Shown here piece by piece: positions 1,341-19,066 of a stretch of 30,163 nt of DNA. The DNA comes from a virus (taxonomy: Duplodnaviria > Caudoviricetes). The notes beneath the pieces are model-generated. The model ran no database searches. It saw only the letters and a program-made list of their open reading frames with translations, and had not been told where the DNA came from. The stretch covers positions 1 to 30,163 of the IMG/VR virus record IMGVR_UViG_3300037991_003529. One strand, written 5' to 3'. Made by a program: the position numbers and the translations under genes. Every line of letters starts with the position of its first letter. Positions within the stretch are counted from its first letter, which is position 1.

Positions 1341-2048
1341 CTAGAAGTGTCCAAAAGCCCATTTCTTTTCTAAGCACCACCAACACTTACCACAAGGTTC
1401 AGTTTCAAATTGGTCTATGATAACTGGCTTAGTAGGTCTATTTTCACAACTTCTTGTCAATGGTAATAGGTCATCAACAAGATTATATTTTTTGTACTGA
1501 GCTGCAATGAATTTTTTGTTTACATTATACCAAGGACTCATCAAACCAAATGTTTTACCATTAACGGTTTTTCTTGATAGCACATCATAGTTTTTTAGAT
1601 CTCTATCTGGTAATGCATCTTTTGCAAGATTAACAGGTCTGCCTCTAATGTTCTTTACTATGACAGGTCCAGGATTAGCTGTAGTCCCATGTATAAAGAA
1701 ATCAAACACACCATTAGCTAATAATTGTTTTTGAACTTCTACAAAGTAATGACCTTCTTGTTCATCTCTATAGAAACTGTAATGCATGTTAAAGTTAGTA
1801 TAACCAGTTCTAGTTATTACTGTGTGAATTACATCAGCAGCTTTTCTTGCATTCCAGTTTCCTTTAGCTGAGTTAGCACAAGTCATTGCATTAATCTCAA
1901 CATCTAAGTTATTATTCTTAACATACTTAACAGTGAGATACAATGCTAGTGCACTATCAACACCACCAGATACATTTATAAGAATCTTTTTATACTCTTC
2001 AGGTATTTGGAAGTTTACAGATTGTCCATCATTATCAGTTAATAGCAT
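1341..2048 (-). CDS. QueC-like PP-loop ATPase (7-cyano-7-deazaguanine synthase-like family)
   Basis: PP-loop SGGVDS; C-terminal Zn-binding pattern TRSC...CGKCWWC. Start ATG 2048 preferred; alternative TTG 2078. Confidence 0.7.
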   Translation of the reverse strand: MLLTDNDGQSVNFQIPEEYKKILINVSGGVDSALALYLTVKYVKNNNLDVEINAMTCANSAKGNWNARKAADVIHTVITRTGYTNFNMHYSFYRDEQEGHYFVEVQKQLLANGVFDFFIHGTTANPGPVIVKNIRGRPVNLAKDALPDRDLKNYDVLSRKTVNGKTFGLMSPWYNVNKKFIAAQYKKYNLVDDLLPLTRSCENRPTKPVIIDQFETEPCGKCWWCLEKKWAFGHF

Positions 2049-2051
2049 AGT

Positions 2052-2072
2052 AAAAAAGGCCCGAAGGCCTTT
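2052..2072 (-). terminator. Intrinsic terminator with C(UUCG)G tetraloop
   Basis: Minus strand AAAGGCC-TTCG-GGCC-TTTTTT right after the stop of ORF 2075-2314. UUCG loops are typical of T4-type terminators. Confidence 0.85.
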
Positions 2073-2074
2073 CC

Positions 2075-2314
2075 TCAATCAGTTTTTTTATCTACTACAA
2101 ATGAATACAACTTTTCAGCTTGAGCTTTTATCTCTTCTGGTGTCATCATTTTTGGAACATATTGATTGTATGCATCCAGAGCTTGTTGAGTGTTTTCTTT
2201 ATGCATCTCCATAGCTTTGTAAGCTAGTTCAAGTTGCATGTCATAGTTCTTGTCGACAATTTCTTTTGCCATGTTAAGAACATCGTATCGAATTTGATAT
2301 GGATTATTTGCCAT
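2075..2314 (-). CDS. Small helical hypothetical phage protein (79 aa; 97 aa from the alternative ATG 2368)
   Basis: MANNPYQIRYDVLNMAKE...PEEIKAQAEKLYSFV; SD AGGAG before ATG 2314 and AGGAGG before in-frame ATG 2368. Confidence 0.75.
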   Translation of the reverse strand: MANNPYQIRYDVLNMAKEIVDKNYDMQLELAYKAMEMHKENTQQALDAYNQYVPKMMTPEEIKAQAEKLYSFVVDKKTD

Positions 2315-3915: not shown

Positions 3916-4330
3916 TACTCACTTTATTCCCAATGTTATACTTTGGACACAATTCCCATTCATCCTTTTCTCTGAATGGAAGTATCTTAATTAATCTTAG
4001 AGGAGCACAATTGCTTGCTTTAGAAGTGTCATGTATTTCAACAAGACCCCAATCACTCATTAATGTAGCTATTGTATTCCTTCTTTGAATATCTGTTTCT
4101 TCTAAGTTGGCTTTCTTTCCATCTAACATAAACAGCTCTTTGAAATGTACAATAAAGTACCTGCCTTGTTTATGAAGTATATGACATGATTGGAAAAGTT
4201 TTTTATCTTTGCGAGATGCAACACCAATTCTTGTTAGTGTTTCTCGAACCTTTAAGAAATCATCAGGTTCGTTTAGAGTTACTTCCAACATATCTGTTGG
4301 GTTCCACTCTACAATGTTAGCTTCTTCCAC
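3902..4330 (-). CDS. regA: Translational repressor RegA
   Basis: DDFLKVRETLTRIGVASRK, QSCHILHKQGRYFIVHFKELF, WELCPKYNIG. Confidence 0.97.
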   Translation of the reverse strand: MEEANIVEWNPTDMLEVTLNEPDDFLKVRETLTRIGVASRKDKKLFQSCHILHKQGRYFIVHFKELFMLDGKKANLEETDIQRRNTIATLMSDWGLVEIHDTSKASNCAPLRLIKILPFREKDEWELCPKYNIGNKVSNVSA

Positions 4331-4694
4331 CTTTGTTCACCTTCTGTTTTATTATAGTTATCTGTTCAGGTGATAGAAGGGACAATACTTGTCTAGCTTT
4401 TTCGTTGCTGTATCCATAGTATTCTTTGACCACTTCAATATCACTCTCAGTTTCTGGTTTCATCCATTTCGAAAATCTTTTACGCTTTCGGATGATATTT
4501 ATAAGAAAGTGATATTGGAGCTTATTATCAGTGTGATGATACTGATTCATTACGTTAGCAAGGCCAACTGTGTCTTGAAAATAGCTTAAAGATCTATTAA
4601 TCATAAAGCTATTGTAATCTTTTTCACATATATCATCAACCATAATGTCTTGTTTACTATAGTTGATACTAGTTACATAATCAAATGGGTTCAT
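4317..4694 (-). CDS. gp62: Clamp loader small subunit
   Basis: YNSFMINRSLS, LQYHFLINIIRKRKRFSKW, VKEYYGYSNEKA; directly upstream of regA. Confidence 0.93.
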   Translation of the reverse strand: MNPFDYVTSINYSKQDIMVDDICEKDYNSFMINRSLSYFQDTVGLANVMNQYHHTDNKLQYHFLINIIRKRKRFSKWMKPETESDIEVVKEYYGYSNEKARQVLSLLSPEQITIIKQKVNKGGRS

Positions 4695-4975
4695 TAAAAA
4701 CCTTGTTCTATTCCACTATCAACAGAAGGCCACATAGCTTTATCAATAGCTTCTTGTAAAGATTGAGTATTGTACTTATTAGTGTTGAGTACGTTTATTT
4801 GTTTCTCATTATAGTATAACAGAGGAACAGTTCTATGTCCACGCTGTCTTACAAATTCTAATGCTTCAGCGTCTTCTCTAATATTAACAATTGTATAGTC
4901 AGCTTCTATTTGATCAAGCATCGACTTCATTGTATCACAAAACGGACATGCTGGTTGTGTGTAAAGTGTTAACAT
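4694..4975 (-). CDS. Glutaredoxin/NrdH-like redoxin
   Basis: LYTQPACPFC and cis-Pro motif HRTVP. Confidence 0.88.
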   Translation of the reverse strand: MLTLYTQPACPFCDTMKSMLDQIEADYTIVNIREDAEALEFVRQRGHRTVPLLYYNEKQINVLNTNKYNTQSLQEAIDKAMWPSVDSGIEQGF

Positions 4976-4976
4976 A

Positions 4977-5273
4977 TTAATTCCTTAAAGATTCTAATCC
5001 GTTTGCTAAGTGACAAAAATGTACTATTGATTCTGTTTCATTGTCAAGCGGACCAGAAAGTATATTTTCTATATTCTTCTTTTGTTCATCAGTTATCTTA
5101 AACTGTAAAGCTAATGAATAATGAATGTCATAACAAAAGGAGCAGTTATTATCTTCACTAATTTTAGCAAAAATGTATTCACGTTCAGCTCTAGTATATC
5201 TATCGCTGATACCTTCTACTATTAATAAAAACAATAAAGGTTCTAGAGATTCAGATAATTCTTTTGTAAACAT
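4977..5273 (-). CDS. AhpD/carboxymuconolactone decarboxylase-like CxxC protein
   Basis: AEREYIFAKISEDNNCSFCYDIH fits the AhpD core RE.I...VS..N.C.YC...H. Confidence 0.65.
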   Translation of the reverse strand: MFTKELSESLEPLLFLLIVEGISDRYTRAEREYIFAKISEDNNCSFCYDIHYSLALQFKITDEQKKNIENILSGPLDNETESIVHFCHLANGLESLRN

Positions 5274-5276
5274 ATT

Positions 5277-5876
5277 TTAACATTTATGAAAATTAGAAGC
5301 AAATGAATGGTCGTCTATTGTTTCTGAAGGATCTGTACTATAATAATGAACATTTTGAGTAAAGCCTTTCACTTCTACATCAAAGACGCTGTACATAGTA
5401 TAACCAATCTTTGGTGTCTTTCTGTTGCTTCGCCATTTGTTTTCTTTGACACCATTAGCTTCAACGTGTCTAGTAAAAAATATAGTATCGATACCTTGTT
5501 TAGCAAAAAAAGGTTTTAAATGATTCCTAAAGATATTTGCTTCTTCTTTCCAGAATTTTATATTTGTTAAACGAAAGTTCTTTTGATCAAGATTATAGGC
5601 TCTTAGTTTTCTTATTAATCTTTTATCTATATGAGGAGTCTTTTTAAAATAATAACCATAGGTTGGCCTATCATTTACTAAATATAAAGCTGTATAATCT
5701 CTATCATATTCTGACATAATATCATACACAAAAGGATTGTCATCAAGCTGTGGTAGTTTGTTTTTACTTGCATCTGCACAAACATCCCACACCCATTCCT
5801 CTACGTATGGATTATCTTTATCATCAGTAAAAAGATACTTTACATTTGGAAGATTGGTATCAAATAATTTGTCCAA
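5277..5876 (-). CDS. Hypothetical protein, possibly GNAT-fold acyltransferase
   Basis: Clean 199-aa ORF coupled to its neighbours; strand/helix order resembles GNAT by eye only. Confidence 0.45.
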   Translation of the reverse strand: MDKLFDTNLPNVKYLFTDDKDNPYVEEWVWDVCADASKNKLPQLDDNPFVYDIMSEYDRDYTALYLVNDRPTYGYYFKKTPHIDKRLIRKLRAYNLDQKNFRLTNIKFWKEEANIFRNHLKPFFAKQGIDTIFFTRHVEANGVKENKWRSNRKTPKIGYTMYSVFDVEVKGFTQNVHYYSTDPSETIDDHSFASNFHKC

Positions 5877-6858
5877 TAATTTGATTCCTCTTTACTTTTC
5901 TTAGATTATCGTCAACTTCAATATGAGCAACCTCTTTAGGTATTATTTCATAAGCGCATCTATGATTGTTTAAGAACAGTTGAGTATTCATAGTTCCTGT
6001 GTAATACACAACACAATTGTGTCCTTCTTTTCTACATAAAGCTAGATCAGCTCCACTATCTATAGCAACCTTTTCTATTTGTTCTGGGTAAACTCTATCA
6101 CCACAATTTTCCATTTTAAATGAATTGTGTTTACGACCAGCAAAAAAGAACTCACCATCATCAGTATATTCTATTAGATCACCGCTATGCCAATACTCTT
6201 GTTGATCTTTCCACTTACAAACCCATTCAATTGAACCGTCTTCGTGATTTATATTTTTGTAATCTATTTCAGGATGTATGTCATTGAAATGGTATATGTC
6301 TTGCTTCTCAGTACTCATAACAATTGGAGGTACTTCAGTACTTCCATATGCAGTAGTAACTTTTTGTGCTCCTTTAGATCTTAGATCTTCCATGAGACCA
6401 TTGGGAGTAACATCACTACCAACTTGCATATGTTTTAGATTACTTAAATCTAACTCTTTCCATTTTTTATGTCTATGCCAAGTCTTCCATACATTAGGAA
6501 GTATAAGTGTGTGAGTAGGATTTATTTCTCTTAATCTATCAGGATAGTTTGATACAGTTGTTTCAATAAAGACATCACAATTTGCTATTGCACATGGATA
6601 TAAACTCATAGAAGTAAAACCAATACCTCTAGGATTGTATAATGACATCATAGTACTATTAGATGTAAGGTCCATCCAATCAGCATTATACTCTGCTATT
6701 TGTTGCATAAGTGCTGGACTATGCTGAAATGTTTTTGGTTCTCCAGTAGTACCACTAGTACTAACAGTAACAGTCCAGTTTTCTAAGTAATCAATAACAG
6801 CAGATCTTACTTTATCATTATCACTTTCAATATATTCAATACCATCAATGTATATCAT
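5860..6858 (-). CDS. Adenylate-forming (ANL / AMP-binding) enzyme, shortened
   Basis: A3 TSGTTGEPK, A5 YGSTE, A7 WHSGDL, A8 GR...DRVYPEQIE, A10-like LRKVKR. Confidence 0.85.
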   Translation of the reverse strand: MIYIDGIEYIESDNDKVRSAVIDYLENWTVTVSTSGTTGEPKTFQHSPALMQQIAEYNADWMDLTSNSTMMSLYNPRGIGFTSMSLYPCAIANCDVFIETTVSNYPDRLREINPTHTLILPNVWKTWHRHKKWKELDLSNLKHMQVGSDVTPNGLMEDLRSKGAQKVTTAYGSTEVPPIVMSTEKQDIYHFNDIHPEIDYKNINHEDGSIEWVCKWKDQQEYWHSGDLIEYTDDGEFFFAGRKHNSFKMENCGDRVYPEQIEKVAIDSGADLALCRKEGHNCVVYYTGTMNTQLFLNNHRCAYEIIPKEVAHIEVDDNLRKVKRNQIIGQII

Positions 6859-8519
6859 CTTTCTGCTAAAGCCTCTTCTAACACTTCAGAGTAAGTCTTA
6901 CCTTCATGTATGTGATCTTTAAACCAATCATAAACATGAGGTGCGTTAAAAGCTAATGCTTTTCCTTTATCATTAATATACTTAAAATCTATTTCTGCCA
7001 AGCACATCTCTTTTGGTTTGATGTTAAGTTCACATAACTTATCGTCCCATCTATCTAGATACAATTGTTGATCAGCCCATTGAAAGTCTAAGAATATATT
7101 ACGTCCCAGATAGCCTCTAGGTGCTCGATACTCTTTCCAGTTTTTTTCAATGTGACCATTATCAATACCATACTTTCCCCACTTACGCCAGAATGGAGTA
7201 TCTCTTCTTTTACTCAAAGTAAAATGATAAGATATAAAATCACTTATTTGATTTTCTAGTTTTTGGACTTGTCTTGTATAAGCTTTCTTAGCTGACTCAG
7301 CTATGTCTCTTCCTTTGTATTTTGTAAGAGCTTGATCTAACATTTGTATACAACTTTGAGCAACGTATATACTGTTAGCTTCCATTGGATCAATAAATCC
7401 TTGAGCCATACCAATACCTACTACATTCTTATCCCAAGCTTTATCATAGTAACCTTGTTCCCATTGTATCAATCTAGGATCTCTTATAAACTCATATCCA
7501 TCCCAGTATCTTATAAAATCTTCTCTAGCTTCATCTGGATCTTCTATATTAGCATCAAATACATATCCAGAACCCATCCTACTATACAATGATATAATAA
7601 AGTTCCAACCACTTCTGTTAGCATAACTTTGAGTGTAAGGCTTCATTTCTTGATAAGGATCTTTATACTTAACAGGAGCTGCCCAAGCAGACTGAGTAGG
7701 CAACTGACTTATGCCTTGCCATTTAACATCCATAGAATCCATTAGTACTCTATTGAATCCAGTACAGTCACAGTACAAGTCTGCTTCAAAGATTCTTCCA
7801 TCTTCTAGTTTAAGGTTAGTAACATAACCATTATAGTCTTTTTGTATTCTGCTAACATGACCTGTTACATGTTCTACTCCTAAAGGTATAGCAACCATGT
7901 CTCTTATTACTTTAGGAAATCTTTCAGCATCTACATGCCAAGCATAGCTATTGTATCCACCAGTAACAGGATAGCCATCATTATATCGAGCAGCACGATT
8001 CTTCATTGCTGGGTGATATTGTTCCATTGTGTAAGCATCAGTTTGACTAGCTGAATACTTACCTCTTCTTACTAACTCTAACCAATAGTCATGATGTTTA
8101 TTATCAATACCAAACTTACCATCATTATCATAGAAGTAATCATCTACAGTTCTATGTTTATAGAAATTGTTTCTTAAAGAGTTTGTATTGTAAGAAAAAC
8201 TAAATGAATAAAAATGATATTCTTCTGGTAGAGCATTCCAATGATCAGTTACATGAGTCATTGGTTTTTCTGTATTCCATCCTACAAAATGATTACCAAG
8301 TTTATGAATACCATGAACTGCTTTCATCCAAGTGTTTTCATCAACATCTAACCACTGAAGAAGCTCTCCAAGTTGAGGTACAGTACTTTCTCCAACACCC
8401 AGTATAGGAACATTGGGTGATTCAATTAATGTTATTTTTATTTCTGGATGTCTTTTTTGAAGAAGAGCTGCAGTGAACCAACCAATGACTCCACCACCAA
8501 GTACTACTATTTTTTTCAT
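6855..8519 (-). CDS. Tryptophan-halogenase family flavin-dependent enzyme
   Basis: GGGVIG, GVGESTVP, HKLGNHFVGW (PrnA catalytic Lys position), AWHVDAERF, DCTGF, FIDPMEA; ATGA overlap with the gp44 stop. Confidence 0.88.
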   Translation of the reverse strand: MKKIVVLGGGVIGWFTAALLQKRHPEIKITLIESPNVPILGVGESTVPQLGELLQWLDVDENTWMKAVHGIHKLGNHFVGWNTEKPMTHVTDHWNALPEEYHFYSFSFSYNTNSLRNNFYKHRTVDDYFYDNDGKFGIDNKHHDYWLELVRRGKYSASQTDAYTMEQYHPAMKNRAARYNDGYPVTGGYNSYAWHVDAERFPKVIRDMVAIPLGVEHVTGHVSRIQKDYNGYVTNLKLEDGRIFEADLYCDCTGFNRVLMDSMDVKWQGISQLPTQSAWAAPVKYKDPYQEMKPYTQSYANRSGWNFIISLYSRMGSGYVFDANIEDPDEAREDFIRYWDGYEFIRDPRLIQWEQGYYDKAWDKNVVGIGMAQGFIDPMEANSIYVAQSCIQMLDQALTKYKGRDIAESAKKAYTRQVQKLENQISDFISYHFTLSKRRDTPFWRKWGKYGIDNGHIEKNWKEYRAPRGYLGRNIFLDFQWADQQLYLDRWDDKLCELNIKPKEMCLAEIDFKYINDKGKALAFNAPHVYDWFKDHIHEGKTYSEVLEEALAER

Positions 8520-9451
8520 TTGAATTGAACCTGAGCCATTATCTCTGTCATACATGCAACTATATTTAGTTCGTGATCAGCTACAAATGCATCTTTATAT
8601 TGGTAATCAGCAAGAATAAGAACAAGTTGAGGAATAGATTGTGGTTCAACATATTCGTTCATGTTATCATATAGACCTCGAAAGATAGCGTTCGTATCCA
8701 CGTCCATATGGTCTACAACCCAACGCCTCATAGCTTTAAAGTTCTTTTCTTTTATAGCAGCGGCCAAGGTATTAAAGTTGTTGCTTGCATTAGTAGATGT
8801 ACTAGAGTTAATCCCAGTACCAGAAATATGAAGTCTCTGTACCTCATTAAGTATTCTCCTCCAATCAGGGGCATGTTTCATAATCAAATCAGCTGTGGCT
8901 CTTTGTTCGTGAGTAACACCTTCTTTGTCTAATATCTCTTTAAGCCTTTTATAAAATTCCATAGAGAGATTAGCTAGAGAGTTTTTAGTAGTGTTAAACT
9001 CATAAACACCACATCGAGAATGCAGTGGTTCTATTATTCTATTCTTAAAGTTGCAAGTAAGTATGAATCTACAATTGTTTGCAAATTCTTCTATGAACCC
9101 ACGTAATGCAGGTTGAGTCGATTGCGGGTTCAAGTAGTCAGCCTCATCGAGAATAACAACCTTGAACCCGCCCGACAAAGATACACTAGAGGCAAATTGT
9201 TTTATCTTACCCCTCAATGTATCAATGTTACCTTCCTCTGATCCGTTGATAATAATATAATCCAGGCCAAGTTCATTACATAATGCTTTAGCTACTGTGG
9301 TCTTTCCTAGACCAGCTGTACCAGTAAACAACATGTTAGGGAACTCACCCTTTTCCACAATCTGCTGAAACGTTTTTTTTAATGAAGGAGGAAGTATAGT
9401 TTCAGATATTGTTTTAGGACGATATTTTTCAACCCAAAGAAAGGTATCCAT
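8516..9451 (-). CDS. gp44: Clamp loader large subunit (AAA+)
   Basis: LWVEKYRP, GTAGLGKTT, ILDEAD, PLHSRC. Confidence 0.96.
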   Translation of the reverse strand: MDTFLWVEKYRPKTISETILPPSLKKTFQQIVEKGEFPNMLFTGTAGLGKTTVAKALCNELGLDYIIINGSEEGNIDTLRGKIKQFASSVSLSGGFKVVILDEADYLNPQSTQPALRGFIEEFANNCRFILTCNFKNRIIEPLHSRCGVYEFNTTKNSLANLSMEFYKRLKEILDKEGVTHEQRATADLIMKHAPDWRRILNEVQRLHISGTGINSSTSTNASNNFNTLAAAIKEKNFKAMRRWVVDHMDVDTNAIFRGLYDNMNEYVEPQSIPQLVLILADYQYKDAFVADHELNIVACMTEIMAQVQFK

Positions 9452-12570: not shown

Positions 12571-13628
12571 ACTATTTCTAGAGCTTGTGCTTCGGTCATA
12601 AGGTTAGACATTTCAACTTTGATACGATCCTTATCAAGATCTGTATCTACAGCATCGATGTAACTATTAAGTAACGTAGGAGTATCTTCCACCGAAACAC
12701 TCTCATCGTCAACATTAGATCCTACAAATTCGTTAAAATTTTCTGCTATCTTTAACTCAAGGATCTCTCTATTGTTTATTCTATCTATGAATCTATCAAA
12801 TGTAAAAGTATCAGCTTTGTTTACCACCACAACTTTAACAAATTTTCCATCGACCTCATCCAAAGGATAATGAAGGTAATCAGTATTGGTATCGTCATAC
12901 CTAATACGATGAAATAAAGTGTGAGGATTTCTAATCGCGGTAATCTCTCTAGTTTCCGTATCAAGAATGTGAAAGTATTTGTTATCATGCGCATCATTCC
13001 AAAAGAACTCCATCTGTGATCCAAGATACGTTATGTTATCTTGTTCTGACTTGACATGAAAATGTCCAGACAAAACTCTCTCAAATCTTTTGAATACAGA
13101 TTTGTCTATTCCATGTTCACATCTTATGCCTCTTAACATCTCATAACCAATTATATCAAAATGACCTCCAATCCAATCACACTTAGCTTTGGCTAAGAAC
13201 TCCATAGATTCTTTTTCACATTGATCATCAATCCATGGAACAAGTCCCATCTTCAGTGAACCATATTCCATAACTGTTGGCTTATGAATGATAGTTACTT
13301 CGTTCATATAGTGACCAAGTAACTCTTTTAAACTATTTAACTCACCTGTGTTCTTATAATATGTGTCATGATTACCACGGATAATATCCATGGTGATACC
13401 TAGATCTCTAAGCGGTTTAAGAAATGCATGACGGTTACGGTTAAGAGCACGGAAGTTGATAAACTTCCTGTTATCATAATAATCACCAAGGTGAATGATA
13501 TGGCGAATGTTATGCTCCAAAAGATAAGGAAAAAATACATCGCTATAAAATTTTTCTGCGTTATCGAGAAATATGTCGCTACTATTGCGAGTCCCACAAT
13601 GAGTGTCATTTAGTATTGCCACGCGCAT
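12567..13628 (-). CDS. gp47: Recombination nuclease subunit (Mre11/SbcD-like)
   Basis: DTH, HLGDYYD, GNHD, SGHFH. Confidence 0.96.
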   Translation of the reverse strand: MRVAILNDTHCGTRNSSDIFLDNAEKFYSDVFFPYLLEHNIRHIIHLGDYYDNRKFINFRALNRNRHAFLKPLRDLGITMDIIRGNHDTYYKNTGELNSLKELLGHYMNEVTIIHKPTVMEYGSLKMGLVPWIDDQCEKESMEFLAKAKCDWIGGHFDIIGYEMLRGIRCEHGIDKSVFKRFERVLSGHFHVKSEQDNITYLGSQMEFFWNDAHDNKYFHILDTETREITAIRNPHTLFHRIRYDDTNTDYLHYPLDEVDGKFVKVVVVNKADTFTFDRFIDRINNREILELKIAENFNEFVGSNVDDESVSVEDTPTLLNSYIDAVDTDLDKDRIKVEMSNLMTEAQALEIV

Positions 13629-14037
13629 CGAGTTTCCCTTCCCTCCTCATCTTCCTTCTAATTTTAGTCGAGCTGATATTGTGAATCTCTTCACCTAGAT
13701 CATGTTGTGTGAATGTATATCCTACACCACGACCATAGCTAATGTCAACAATATTTGGTACTGGCAGTATTGTATATTCAATACCATTAGTATATCCTTC
13801 TTCAGCTAAAGCATCTTCGATACGTCCTCTTATATTTCTTAAATGAAATGGATTATCGTTTTGCTTTACTGTTCGTCCGCCACCAGCATCTTTACCAACA
13901 ATACCACTGACGTCTCTAACCATTATACACACTTGACCAGTTTCAGACAACGCTTTTTTAAATAATTCTGTATGTCCTTTATGCCAAGGTTGCCACCTAC
14001 CAAGCATTTGAGTAGTAGGCTTTTGAGGATCAAACAT
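13606..14037 (-). CDS. Cytidylyltransferase-like / HxGH nucleotidyltransferase
   Basis: GRWQPWHKGH and ISSTKIR. Confidence 0.85.
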   Translation of the reverse strand: MFDPQKPTTQMLGRWQPWHKGHTELFKKALSETGQVCIMVRDVSGIVGKDAGGGRTVKQNDNPFHLRNIRGRIEDALAEEGYTNGIEYTILPVPNIVDISYGRGVGYTFTQHDLGEEIHNISSTKIRRKMRREGKLDARGNTK

Positions 14038-14449
14038 GACGTTCTTCTTTGAGTTGATTAGCAAAGTCGAGAATCTCTTTCTCACTCATAAAACCTTTTA
14101 TGTGATAATCAACTTCTGTTGGTTGTTCAAATAACTGATTAGTGTCAGTATATCTTCCAGCAGCTATTGTATCCATCCATATAGTAATGTCAGCTGAGAA
14201 TGTCTTTCTAGTTTCTCCAGTAGGACAAACAAAGTCACATATTACTGTTCTGGCTCTTGTACCTTCAAACGTAGCTAAACAATTCATACGTTCAGATTGA
14301 CGTCTACGACCTTGTTCAGTAAAGTCATAATCATTTGCCATCTCTCTGACTTTATCTGCATTATACCAAGCACAGTTTAAATGCACTTGTAATCTTTTTG
14401 CTAAGTGTGTTTTACCAGAACCTGGTAAACCCATTATTAATATTCTCAT
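14030..14449 (-). CDS. Adenylylsulfate kinase-like P-loop kinase
   Basis: GLPGSGKT, NADKVR, DF..QGRRRQ, DFVCP; ATGA overlap with the gp55 stop. Confidence 0.75.
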   Translation of the reverse strand: MRILIMGLPGSGKTHLAKRLQVHLNCAWYNADKVREMANDYDFTEQGRRRQSERMNCLATFEGTRARTVICDFVCPTGETRKTFSADITIWMDTIAAGRYTDTNQLFEQPTEVDYHIKGFMSEKEILDFANQLKEERHV

Positions 14450-15099: not shown

Positions 15100-15128
15100 T
15101 TGACAAGTTGTTAAAATAGATGTATAAT
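15100..15128 (+). promoter_or_regulatory. Perfect sigma70 promoter with no evident downstream gene
   Basis: TTGACA (15100-15105), 17 nt, TATAAT (15123-15128); A8 tract at 15089-15096. Confidence 0.75.
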
Positions 15129-18790: not shown

Positions 18791-19066
18791 ATGATTAATT
18801 ATGTAACAGGTCACGAATACACAGGTAAAAACTATTCTACTTTACTTGCTGCTGGTTTTGAAGAAGGATCAGAATTTGTAACTTTTAAGCAAGCTTGCAA
18901 GCTTCCAGGTTTATCTGGTAAAAAACTTAAAGGTATCAAAAAAGCTGCTTCTTTAGTACGTTTCTCTCGTACAGAAAAAGAACAAGATGAGTCTGGTAAG
19001 ATGGTTGCTAAACCAATTTACTTCTCAGTATTTGATCTTAAAGAAGTCTTAAAGAGAAAGGTGTGA
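18791..19066 (+). CDS. ArdC N-terminal (DUF1738)-like ssDNA-binding protein
   Basis: NYVTGHEYTGKN...L...FVTFKQA...KG.K...YFSVFD matches N..TG..Y.G.N...TF.QA...KG.K...F.VF; SD AGGAG. Confidence 0.7.
   Translation: MINYVTGHEYTGKNYSTLLAAGFEEGSEFVTFKQACKLPGLSGKKLKGIKKAASLVRFSRTEKEQDESGKMVAKPIYFSVFDLKEVLKRKV

Follow-up and report, generated by a model that had tools for sequence, protein, structure and literature searches.

The 30,163-nt stretch of DNA analyzed here as a whole (the window; IMGVR_UViG_3300037991_003529) represents part of the genome of an uncultured T4-like myophage and carries gp23, gp20, gp18, gp17, gp45, gp44, gp62, and regA. Its sequence turns up in marine metagenomes, and the closest major capsid proteins from cultured viruses are those of phage C48C1 (65%) and Pelagibacter phage HTVC008M (61%). 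Between the clamp-loader genes gp44 and gp62 lies a run of five genes coding for a halogenase-like flavoenzyme, a short adenylating enzyme of the ANL superfamily, a 199-amino-acid orphan protein, an AhpD-like protein, and a glutaredoxin (Table 1). An earlier note on this DNA had described the locus in these terms, and our recomputation reproduced both the five genes and all six tight junctions, which read from gp44 to gp62 as ATGA, ATGA, a 17-nt overlap, a 3-nt gap, a 1-nt gap, and TAATG. The ATG of the flavoenzyme gene is located at position 8519; a longer open reading frame of 566 amino acids starting at 8555 begins within gp44.

Table 1. Genes of the gp44-gp62 region of the window and of the related large-phage operon
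Feature	Position	Strand	Basis	Role
gp44 clamp-loader ATPase	8516-9451	-	profile match	upstream border of variable site
Halogenase-like flavoenzyme, tryptophan-halogenase fold, 554 aa	6855-8519	-	Trp_halogenase E 7e-93	cassette core
Short ANL-superfamily adenylating enzyme, 332 aa	5860-6858	-	AMP-binding E 4e-15, motifs	cassette core
Orphan, predicted GNAT-fold acyltransferase, 199 aa, TTG start preceded by GAGGA	5277-5876	-	predicted fold	cassette core
AhpD/CMD-like CxxC protein, 98 aa	4977-5273	-	TIGR00778 E 1.4e-5 (below cut-off)	optional accessory
Glutaredoxin (CPFC), 93 aa	4694-4975	-	Glutaredoxin E 9e-14	resident of site just before gp62
gp62 clamp-loader small subunit	4317-4694	-	Phage_clamp_A E 2e-13	downstream border of variable site
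Operon of large-phage record G040	L331:8574-15314
Acyl carrier protein of G040	L334:1444-1680

The coverage by independent runs excludes the possibility that this gene run is an assembly artefact. The stretch or part of it is contained in 20 runs from 10 studies, with eight of the runs holding at least half of it and no RNA data set among those listed, and contigs from four independent runs cross the gp62-glutaredoxin-AhpD-orphan, orphan-ANL, ANL-flavoenzyme, and flavoenzyme-gp44 boundaries with no indels listed; the whole stretch was never spanned by one single piece. The same gene order is found on scaffold L336, whose ANL protein is 98% identical. Among the 40 of 116 strain differences that were listed, 21 of the 25 within the five genes were synonymous.

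The best solved relatives of the flavoenzyme are free-tryptophan 6- and 7-halogenases, and it matches VirX1 (PDB 6QGM) with an E value of 3e-52. It possesses the flavin-binding GxGxxG motif (GGGVIG, residues 8-13), the FX[DE]PX[EFL] motif (FIDPME at 375), and a predicted catalytic Lys73 that aligns with the conserved lysine of RebH-type enzymes and is kept in all 24 ANL-linked homologues. In place of WxWxIP it reads WNFIIS, and several relatives read WNFIIP. This motif is missing from some true halogenases; the motifs are those given in PMC8407142 (here and below, statements on published work refer to the cited passages of these papers). A scan for P[ML]EAN, which is blind to the ligase, retrieved about 170 viral stretches, with flanks at 80 of 119 loci. 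As the ligase was present at just 15 of the 51 well-flanked motif loci, we rejected the idea that P[ML]EAN marks flavoenzymes linked to a ligase. Within the close clade of the window's flavoenzyme, an ANL gene adjoined all 16 members with downstream sequence (motif scan; one of the 16 via another search). A tree was built from 69 viral flavoenzymes after dereplication (FastTree, midpoint root), many of which had been found via the ligase. In it, all 18 members of the window's clade had an ANL neighbor and 15 of them a GNAT-like neighbor (one locus cut by a contig end); ANL-linked flavoenzymes occur in three other branches as well. Separately, seven marine phage contigs (L206, L214, L223, L232, L237, L265, and L269) carry three to four consecutive tryptophan-halogenase-like genes next to 2-oxoglutarate oxygenase arrays.

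The ANL motifs of the short ligase (P-loop at 34, YGSTE at 171, SGD at 225, hinge GR at 241, and a terminal Lys at 317) are invariant or nearly so across 51 aligned homologues. Its model (predicted local distance difference test score, pLDDT, 86) has the two-domain ANL fold (Z 23.1, root-mean-square deviation [rmsd] 3.5, 310 aligned residues); compared with its structural matches the protein is about 150 N-terminal residues shorter, so that most of the first N-terminal subdomain is gone. The family is almost exclusively viral: we found 115 relatives in IMG/VR, a single one among the 185,579 genomes of GTDB, on a contig of a metagenome-assembled genome with similar neighbors, and none among 50,697 annotated phage records. 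In several lineages, the ligase or the flavoenzyme is accompanied by a small gene for a hydrophobic protein, DUF6356 or similar (L100:6605-6823, L088, L076, L268, and L198). One of these, a 72-amino-acid gene preceding the ANL gene in a second phage lineage, was considered as a carrier protein and rejected, as it encodes such a hydrophobic DUF6356 protein.

For the 199-amino-acid orphan, Pfam, PHROG, and NCBIfam gave no match, the Atlas no usable match, and the PDB no profile match; among 1.8 billion representative proteins, its homologues fill no more than 13 clusters, all of them unnamed. Its model (pLDDT 88) adopts a predicted GNAT fold, with 125 Foldseek matches at E values of 0.001 or lower, the listed ones being of the GNAT type. 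An invariant Arg92 is located on strand 4, and the coenzyme A (CoA) loop Q/R-x-x-G-x-G/A that would follow this strand is found in none of the 32 family members and in none of 27 GNAT-like phage partners from other families; residues 136-160 are net basic in all 32. Loss of the CoA loop is a mark of the carrier-protein-dependent GNATs SbzI and FeeM (PMC11685415), and both the loop loss and the basic patch are reported for, or consistent with, enzymes of this kind. Faint FeeM matches appeared in 11 of the 27 partner proteins belonging to other GNAT-like families (best E 0.012), and a second partner family has weak GNAT and FeeM signals of its own; FeeM was not among the 50 structural matches listed for the orphan. 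By these sequence comparisons, ligase and orphan GNAT are new families of enzymes, for which the searched phage collection contains no cultured representative.

The structural matches of the orphan are headed by LasI (VIA Z 9.7, rmsd 4.1, 157 aligned), which is tied with ordinary GNATs. Together with matches to RpaI and MesI (Z 8.5 and 8.2) and a strand-4 arginine that by eye corresponds to LasI Arg104 (PMC9654057), this could be read as a divergent LuxI-type synthase that would combine an acyl group with S-adenosylmethionine into a homoserine-lactone signal disturbing host or prophage quorum sensing. Roseobacter prophages do carry exchangeable luxI modules (PMC13345283), and a methylthioadenosine/S-adenosylhomocysteine (MTA/SAH) nucleosidase-like gene directly precedes the short ligase at two loci (L359:2268-2834 and L380). 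We nevertheless regard a LuxI-type synthase as highly unlikely: the lead in Z over ordinary GNATs is below 1, Autoind_synth matched none of 12 plus 27 proteins, and the orphan reads R-K-L-R-A-Y versus E-L-S-R-F, with an invariant arginine at the position of LasI Glu101 (by eye). Moreover, no LuxR-type gene was present among the scanned genes of the window or 144 scanned proteins of the relative G001 (both records being incomplete), and both nucleosidase loci lack the GNAT gene as well as the flavoenzyme.

Which of the five genes travel together was assessed at 144 ANL loci, 100 of which had enough flanking sequence; at 95% identity these formed 35 groups, and they comprised 36 gene arrangements. 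A GNAT-like gene was present within 2 kb of the ANL gene in 32 of the 36 arrangements and 31 of the 35 groups, a count with some circularity, as such neighbors had served to build the profiles. The flavoenzyme occurred in 21 arrangements, all three genes in 19, glutaredoxin in 12, DUF6356 in eight, a desaturase in four, and AhpD in two. A metagenome scan that was not dereplicated gave a similar order among 40 well-flanked loci (GNAT-like neighbor 33, flavoenzyme 19, AhpD six). The 12 glutaredoxin arrangements are exactly those at the gp44-gp62 site, and in four of 12 T4-like arrangements a fatty-acid desaturase follows the GNAT gene. Elsewhere the trio is found as ANL-flavoenzyme-GNAT, GNAT-ANL-flavoenzyme, and flavoenzyme-ANL-nitroreductase-GNAT, and in the second phage lineage ANL-GNAT is joined by a distant flavoenzyme (22-26% identity) in some cases and not in others, with gene orders that differ from that of the window. 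Hence, the co-occurrence of five families in viral metagenomes, proposed earlier as a check, came out for flavoenzyme, ANL, and GNAT, which associate far more than the rest; a unit of all five is not supported, AhpD being rare among the arrangements and glutaredoxin being present at the site in 37 of 63 ligase-free relatives as well. As judged from these gene neighborhoods, the core is the trio of flavoenzyme, ANL, and GNAT, AhpD is optional, and glutaredoxin belongs to the site rather than to the pathway.

The AhpD-like protein contains an intact E-x11-C-x2-C-x3-H (residues 32-51; invariant in four aligned proteins), which is the motif of the AhpD/CMD family. Close relatives were found at 10 loci, six in a cassette of the window's type, three in a large-phage operon, and one elsewhere. 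Bmp8 of the marine bromopyrrole pathway is a CMD-type protein as well. The earlier note had drawn an analogy to Bmp, whose Bmp1-8 set, like our locus, combines a flavin halogenase with an adenylating enzyme and a protein that depends on cysteines (PMC5577590), and the AhpD-like protein would then act as a debrominase; that its close relatives stand almost only beside the window's flavoenzyme clade speaks for such a role. The analogy does not survive closer comparison: Bmp needs the carrier Bmp1 and the proline dehydrogenase Bmp3 (PMC5577590), neither of which is present in the cassette or the neighborhood maps. The cassette also lacks a P450 and Bmp5, it contains a GNAT that Bmp does not have, AhpD is rare among the arrangements, and the flavoenzyme's best solved relatives act on free tryptophan. 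We therefore see only a very remote chance for a Bmp-like pathway.

In three large-phage records (G039, G040, and G041), a flavoenzyme of the window's clade (46% identity) is combined with an ANL enzyme that is full-length and of another kind (26%). Their operon is one tight run of full-length ANL, flavoenzyme, desaturase, GNAT-like, FabF-type ketosynthase, AhpD-like, and oxygenase-like genes, and an acyl carrier protein is encoded on the same contig 30-36 kb away. A gene for an SbmA/BacA transporter is positioned 5 kb upstream of the operon in G040.

To place the cassette in its genomic context, we surveyed the 80 best of 325 gp62 relatives, 68 of which span gp44 to gp62 (not dereplicated). 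At 26 sites neither glutaredoxin nor GNAT was found (with gp44 and gp62 directly adjacent in 24), 27 had glutaredoxin without GNAT, 10 had a different GNAT cassette, and five had the trio. The 10 alternative sites carry a GNAT-like gene of another family, either by itself or accompanied by TauD, a desaturase, an oxygenase, or a sulfotransferase; such cassettes, which lack ligase and flavoenzyme, are exemplified by L117:5623-7720, L142:2543-5710, L151, L163, and L183. Because of this survey, the split of gp44 from gp62 is to be seen as common in the clade and glutaredoxin as a resident; the split had been taken as a sign of importance, a view at odds with a gap that is empty or filled with other cargo in 63 of 68 relatives. 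With at least a dozen different contents, the gap is a hot spot in which a GNAT-like gene is the constant part of the larger inserts. One could suppose that the site merely gathers unrelated auxiliary enzymes that share a promoter and no pathway. The reassortment of genes, the behavior of glutaredoxin and AhpD as passengers or options, and halogenase-like genes scattered singly or in arrays over marine phages would fit this notion; however, the trio was reassembled in other lineages and gene orders, from three other flavoenzyme branches and with a non-orthologous ligase, and a mere collection of cargo seems distinctly unlikely to us.

Nine late-promoter sites were found in the window, none of them between 4503 and 11253, and no minus-strand terminator was found. 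These scans make it plausible that the cassette is co-transcribed with the clamp and clamp-loader genes, which is the extent to which the previously claimed expression with replication genes holds, and the timing is probably pre-late. A sigma-70 scan of the window yielded no excess (62 versus 56 in shuffles). A perfect sigma-70 consensus is located in the gap before gp55 (15100-15128, plus strand), opposite to the gene direction.

From the genes, motifs, predicted folds, co-occurrence, and interchangeable accessories we infer, with moderate confidence, each reaction, the carrier, and the timing of a module that would build a modified acyl-amide. The ligase would adenylate a carboxylic acid and load it onto an acyl carrier protein taken from the host. 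Halogenation or oxidation of the acyl group would fall to the halogenase-like enzyme, and the GNAT-fold protein would move this group onto an amine. The product would probably be a small molecule, made while the infection is in its replication phase. The desaturase, 2-oxoglutarate oxygenases, TauD, sulfotransferase, and AhpD that vary between relatives would then diversify the product. A small-molecule product and an acyl chain are favored because of the desaturase and ketosynthase partners. The activate-modify-transfer pathway envisaged in the earlier note gains support in this way, with the orphan, by its GNAT fold, as the putative missing transferase of a trio that co-occurs.

Several observations weigh against an acyl-amide module. 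The Fx.Px.Sx.G tunnel motif is absent from the flavoenzyme, which has FIDPMEANS, and all 24 ANL-linked homologues read EA-N/T-S/V/A; because the halide-tunnel motif is altered, halogenation is uncertain, and the enzyme may either halogenate or oxidize. Tryptophan-halogenase-type enzymes usually use free aromatic substrates, which makes a fatty acyl chain an awkward substrate, and many viral flavoenzymes with the P[ML]EAN variant have no ligase beside them. The best structural matches of the ligase tie among aryl, amino-acid, and fatty-acid ligases, and the GNAT searches gave no pointer to a substrate. Pfam matches to FeeM or LuxI were found for none of 12 orphan-family proteins, and a profile comparison of the orphan family with the other partner families gave no significant homology (probability 0.9%). 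To the circularity of the GNAT count comes the looseness of the trio: 13 of the 36 arrangements combine ANL and GNAT in the absence of the flavoenzyme, four have an ANL but no GNAT, and 10 of the 68 sites have a GNAT but no ANL. Genes also reassort within cassettes, an ANL with 80% identity to that of the window standing beside a GNAT with 30%, and one with 76% beside a GNAT with 73%. Finally, a carrier protein (PF00550) was found in none of five long records with the short ANL, including an 84%-complete T4-like relative, so that a host carrier must be assumed.

The same chemistry might instead serve a macromolecular acceptor, such as a virion fiber or glycan, the host surface or a host protein, or phage DNA, and would then evade defense or alter adsorption. 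This alternative, which we judge somewhat unlikely, keeps its weight because of the fiber-like neighbor in the second lineage and the place of the cassette within the replication operon: in the second lineage, ANL-GNAT stands directly behind a fiber-like gene coding for 440-580 amino acids, in a neighborhood of radical SAM genes and genes with no annotation. RNA polymerase and DNA are known or predicted targets of phage GNATs (PMC7824862), and Mu Mom is among the orphan's structural matches (Z 7.8). In addition, one long relative (G001:16086-20977; L313:16083 to L314:1977) carries FolE, QueE-like, and QueD genes and a TGT/DpdA-like gene of 286 amino acids recognized by eye, with QueC not recognized; these genes make 7-deazaguanine DNA modification possible in this relative. 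Against a macromolecular acceptor stands the distribution of these genes among 38 mostly fragmentary records, in which FolE is found eight times, with and without the cassette and including three glutaredoxin-only relatives, and the TGT-like gene once. Likewise, 63 of the 68 close relatives do without the cassette, no late promoter serves it, and the desaturase and ketosynthase partners work on acyl chains.

The acyl-amide module has a close functional parallel in SbzL-SbzG-SbzI of altemicidin biosynthesis, in which an adenylating enzyme and a GNAT without CoA loop accomplish activation, carrier loading, and amide formation (PMC11685415); the phage cassette differs by lacking a carrier gene, by its unrelated sequence families, by its halogenase-like partner, and by being viral. 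The FeeM/TyzA N-acyl amino acid synthases and the LuxI family resemble the orphan as GNATs of about 200 amino acids with a strand-4 arginine and no CoA loop, flanked by oxidative tailoring genes, and LasI is its top match (PMC10404671, PMC9654057). In contrast to them, the orphan family lacks a Pfam match, its acceptor residues are not recognizable, LuxR is missing, and the phage has a dedicated short ligase. By analogy, the cassette may work like SbzL/SbzI or FeeM-type acyl transfer, and membership in the FeeM or LuxI family is only putative. Halogenase-like genes of cyanophages and VirX1 share the Pfam family, the marine T4-like background, and the catalytic lysine with the flavoenzyme (PMC8407142, PMC10452541, PMC3037559), but are only about 22-33% identical to it; the altered tunnel motif is found here, as is an ANL partner missing from the annotated phage records. 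The predicted halogenase-carbamoyltransferase-oxygenase clusters of jumbo cyanophages such as S-SSM6a likewise consist of tailoring enzymes, for which a role in making a metabolite or in decorating polysaccharide was proposed (PMC7824862); the passage on them names neither ANL ligase nor GNAT, and their genomic place is another. While prophage luxI modules are proven (PMC13345283) and phage halogenase clusters were predicted earlier (PMC7824862), we found no description of a phage ANL-GNAT-halogenase cassette in the full-text literature searched, the scope of which did not extend to subscription journals or to supplementary tables of comparative papers that may list such genes.

Further genes of the window and its relatives deserve mention. 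A PP-loop protein of 245 amino acids, which has a cluster of cysteines at its C terminus and a weak resemblance to QueC, is encoded just before the DNA polymerase gene (1341-2078, minus strand), and similar genes occur close to the cassette of the second lineage. Between gp55 and gp47 (13606-14449, minus strand), adjacent APS-kinase-like and HIGH nucleotidyltransferase-like genes each match one half of a single PHROG family. Downstream of gp23, an ArdC-N-like gene stands alone on the plus strand (18791-19066) and is conserved in the relative G001. That relative (L313-L320) also encodes phosphoenolpyruvate carboxykinase, an IMP dehydrogenase/GMP reductase-like protein, dihydroorotate dehydrogenase, two solute-binding proteins, a class 3 lipase, and a glycosyltransferase/epimerase cluster.

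Halogenase-like and oxygenase genes are numerous in marine phages, and here a clade of such flavoenzymes is linked to an activating ligase and a putative acyltransferase. A GNAT predicted to transfer acyl groups at a variable site, combined with ligase, halogenase, desaturase, TauD, sulfotransferase, and ketosynthase genes that can be exchanged, leads us to the tentative and rather unlikely idea that several lytic marine lineages run a combinatorial natural-product system, whose diverse halogenated or oxidized N-acyl signals might act on the host, on its prophages, or on competing microbes during infection. With its three small genes, the trio sets out a series of reactions that can be tested, for which the natural alleles with or without desaturase, AhpD, or ketosynthase offer built-in comparisons. 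The product, if found, would be a specialized metabolite or a modification made by a lytic phage, and it would reveal the role of the P[ML]EAN motif.

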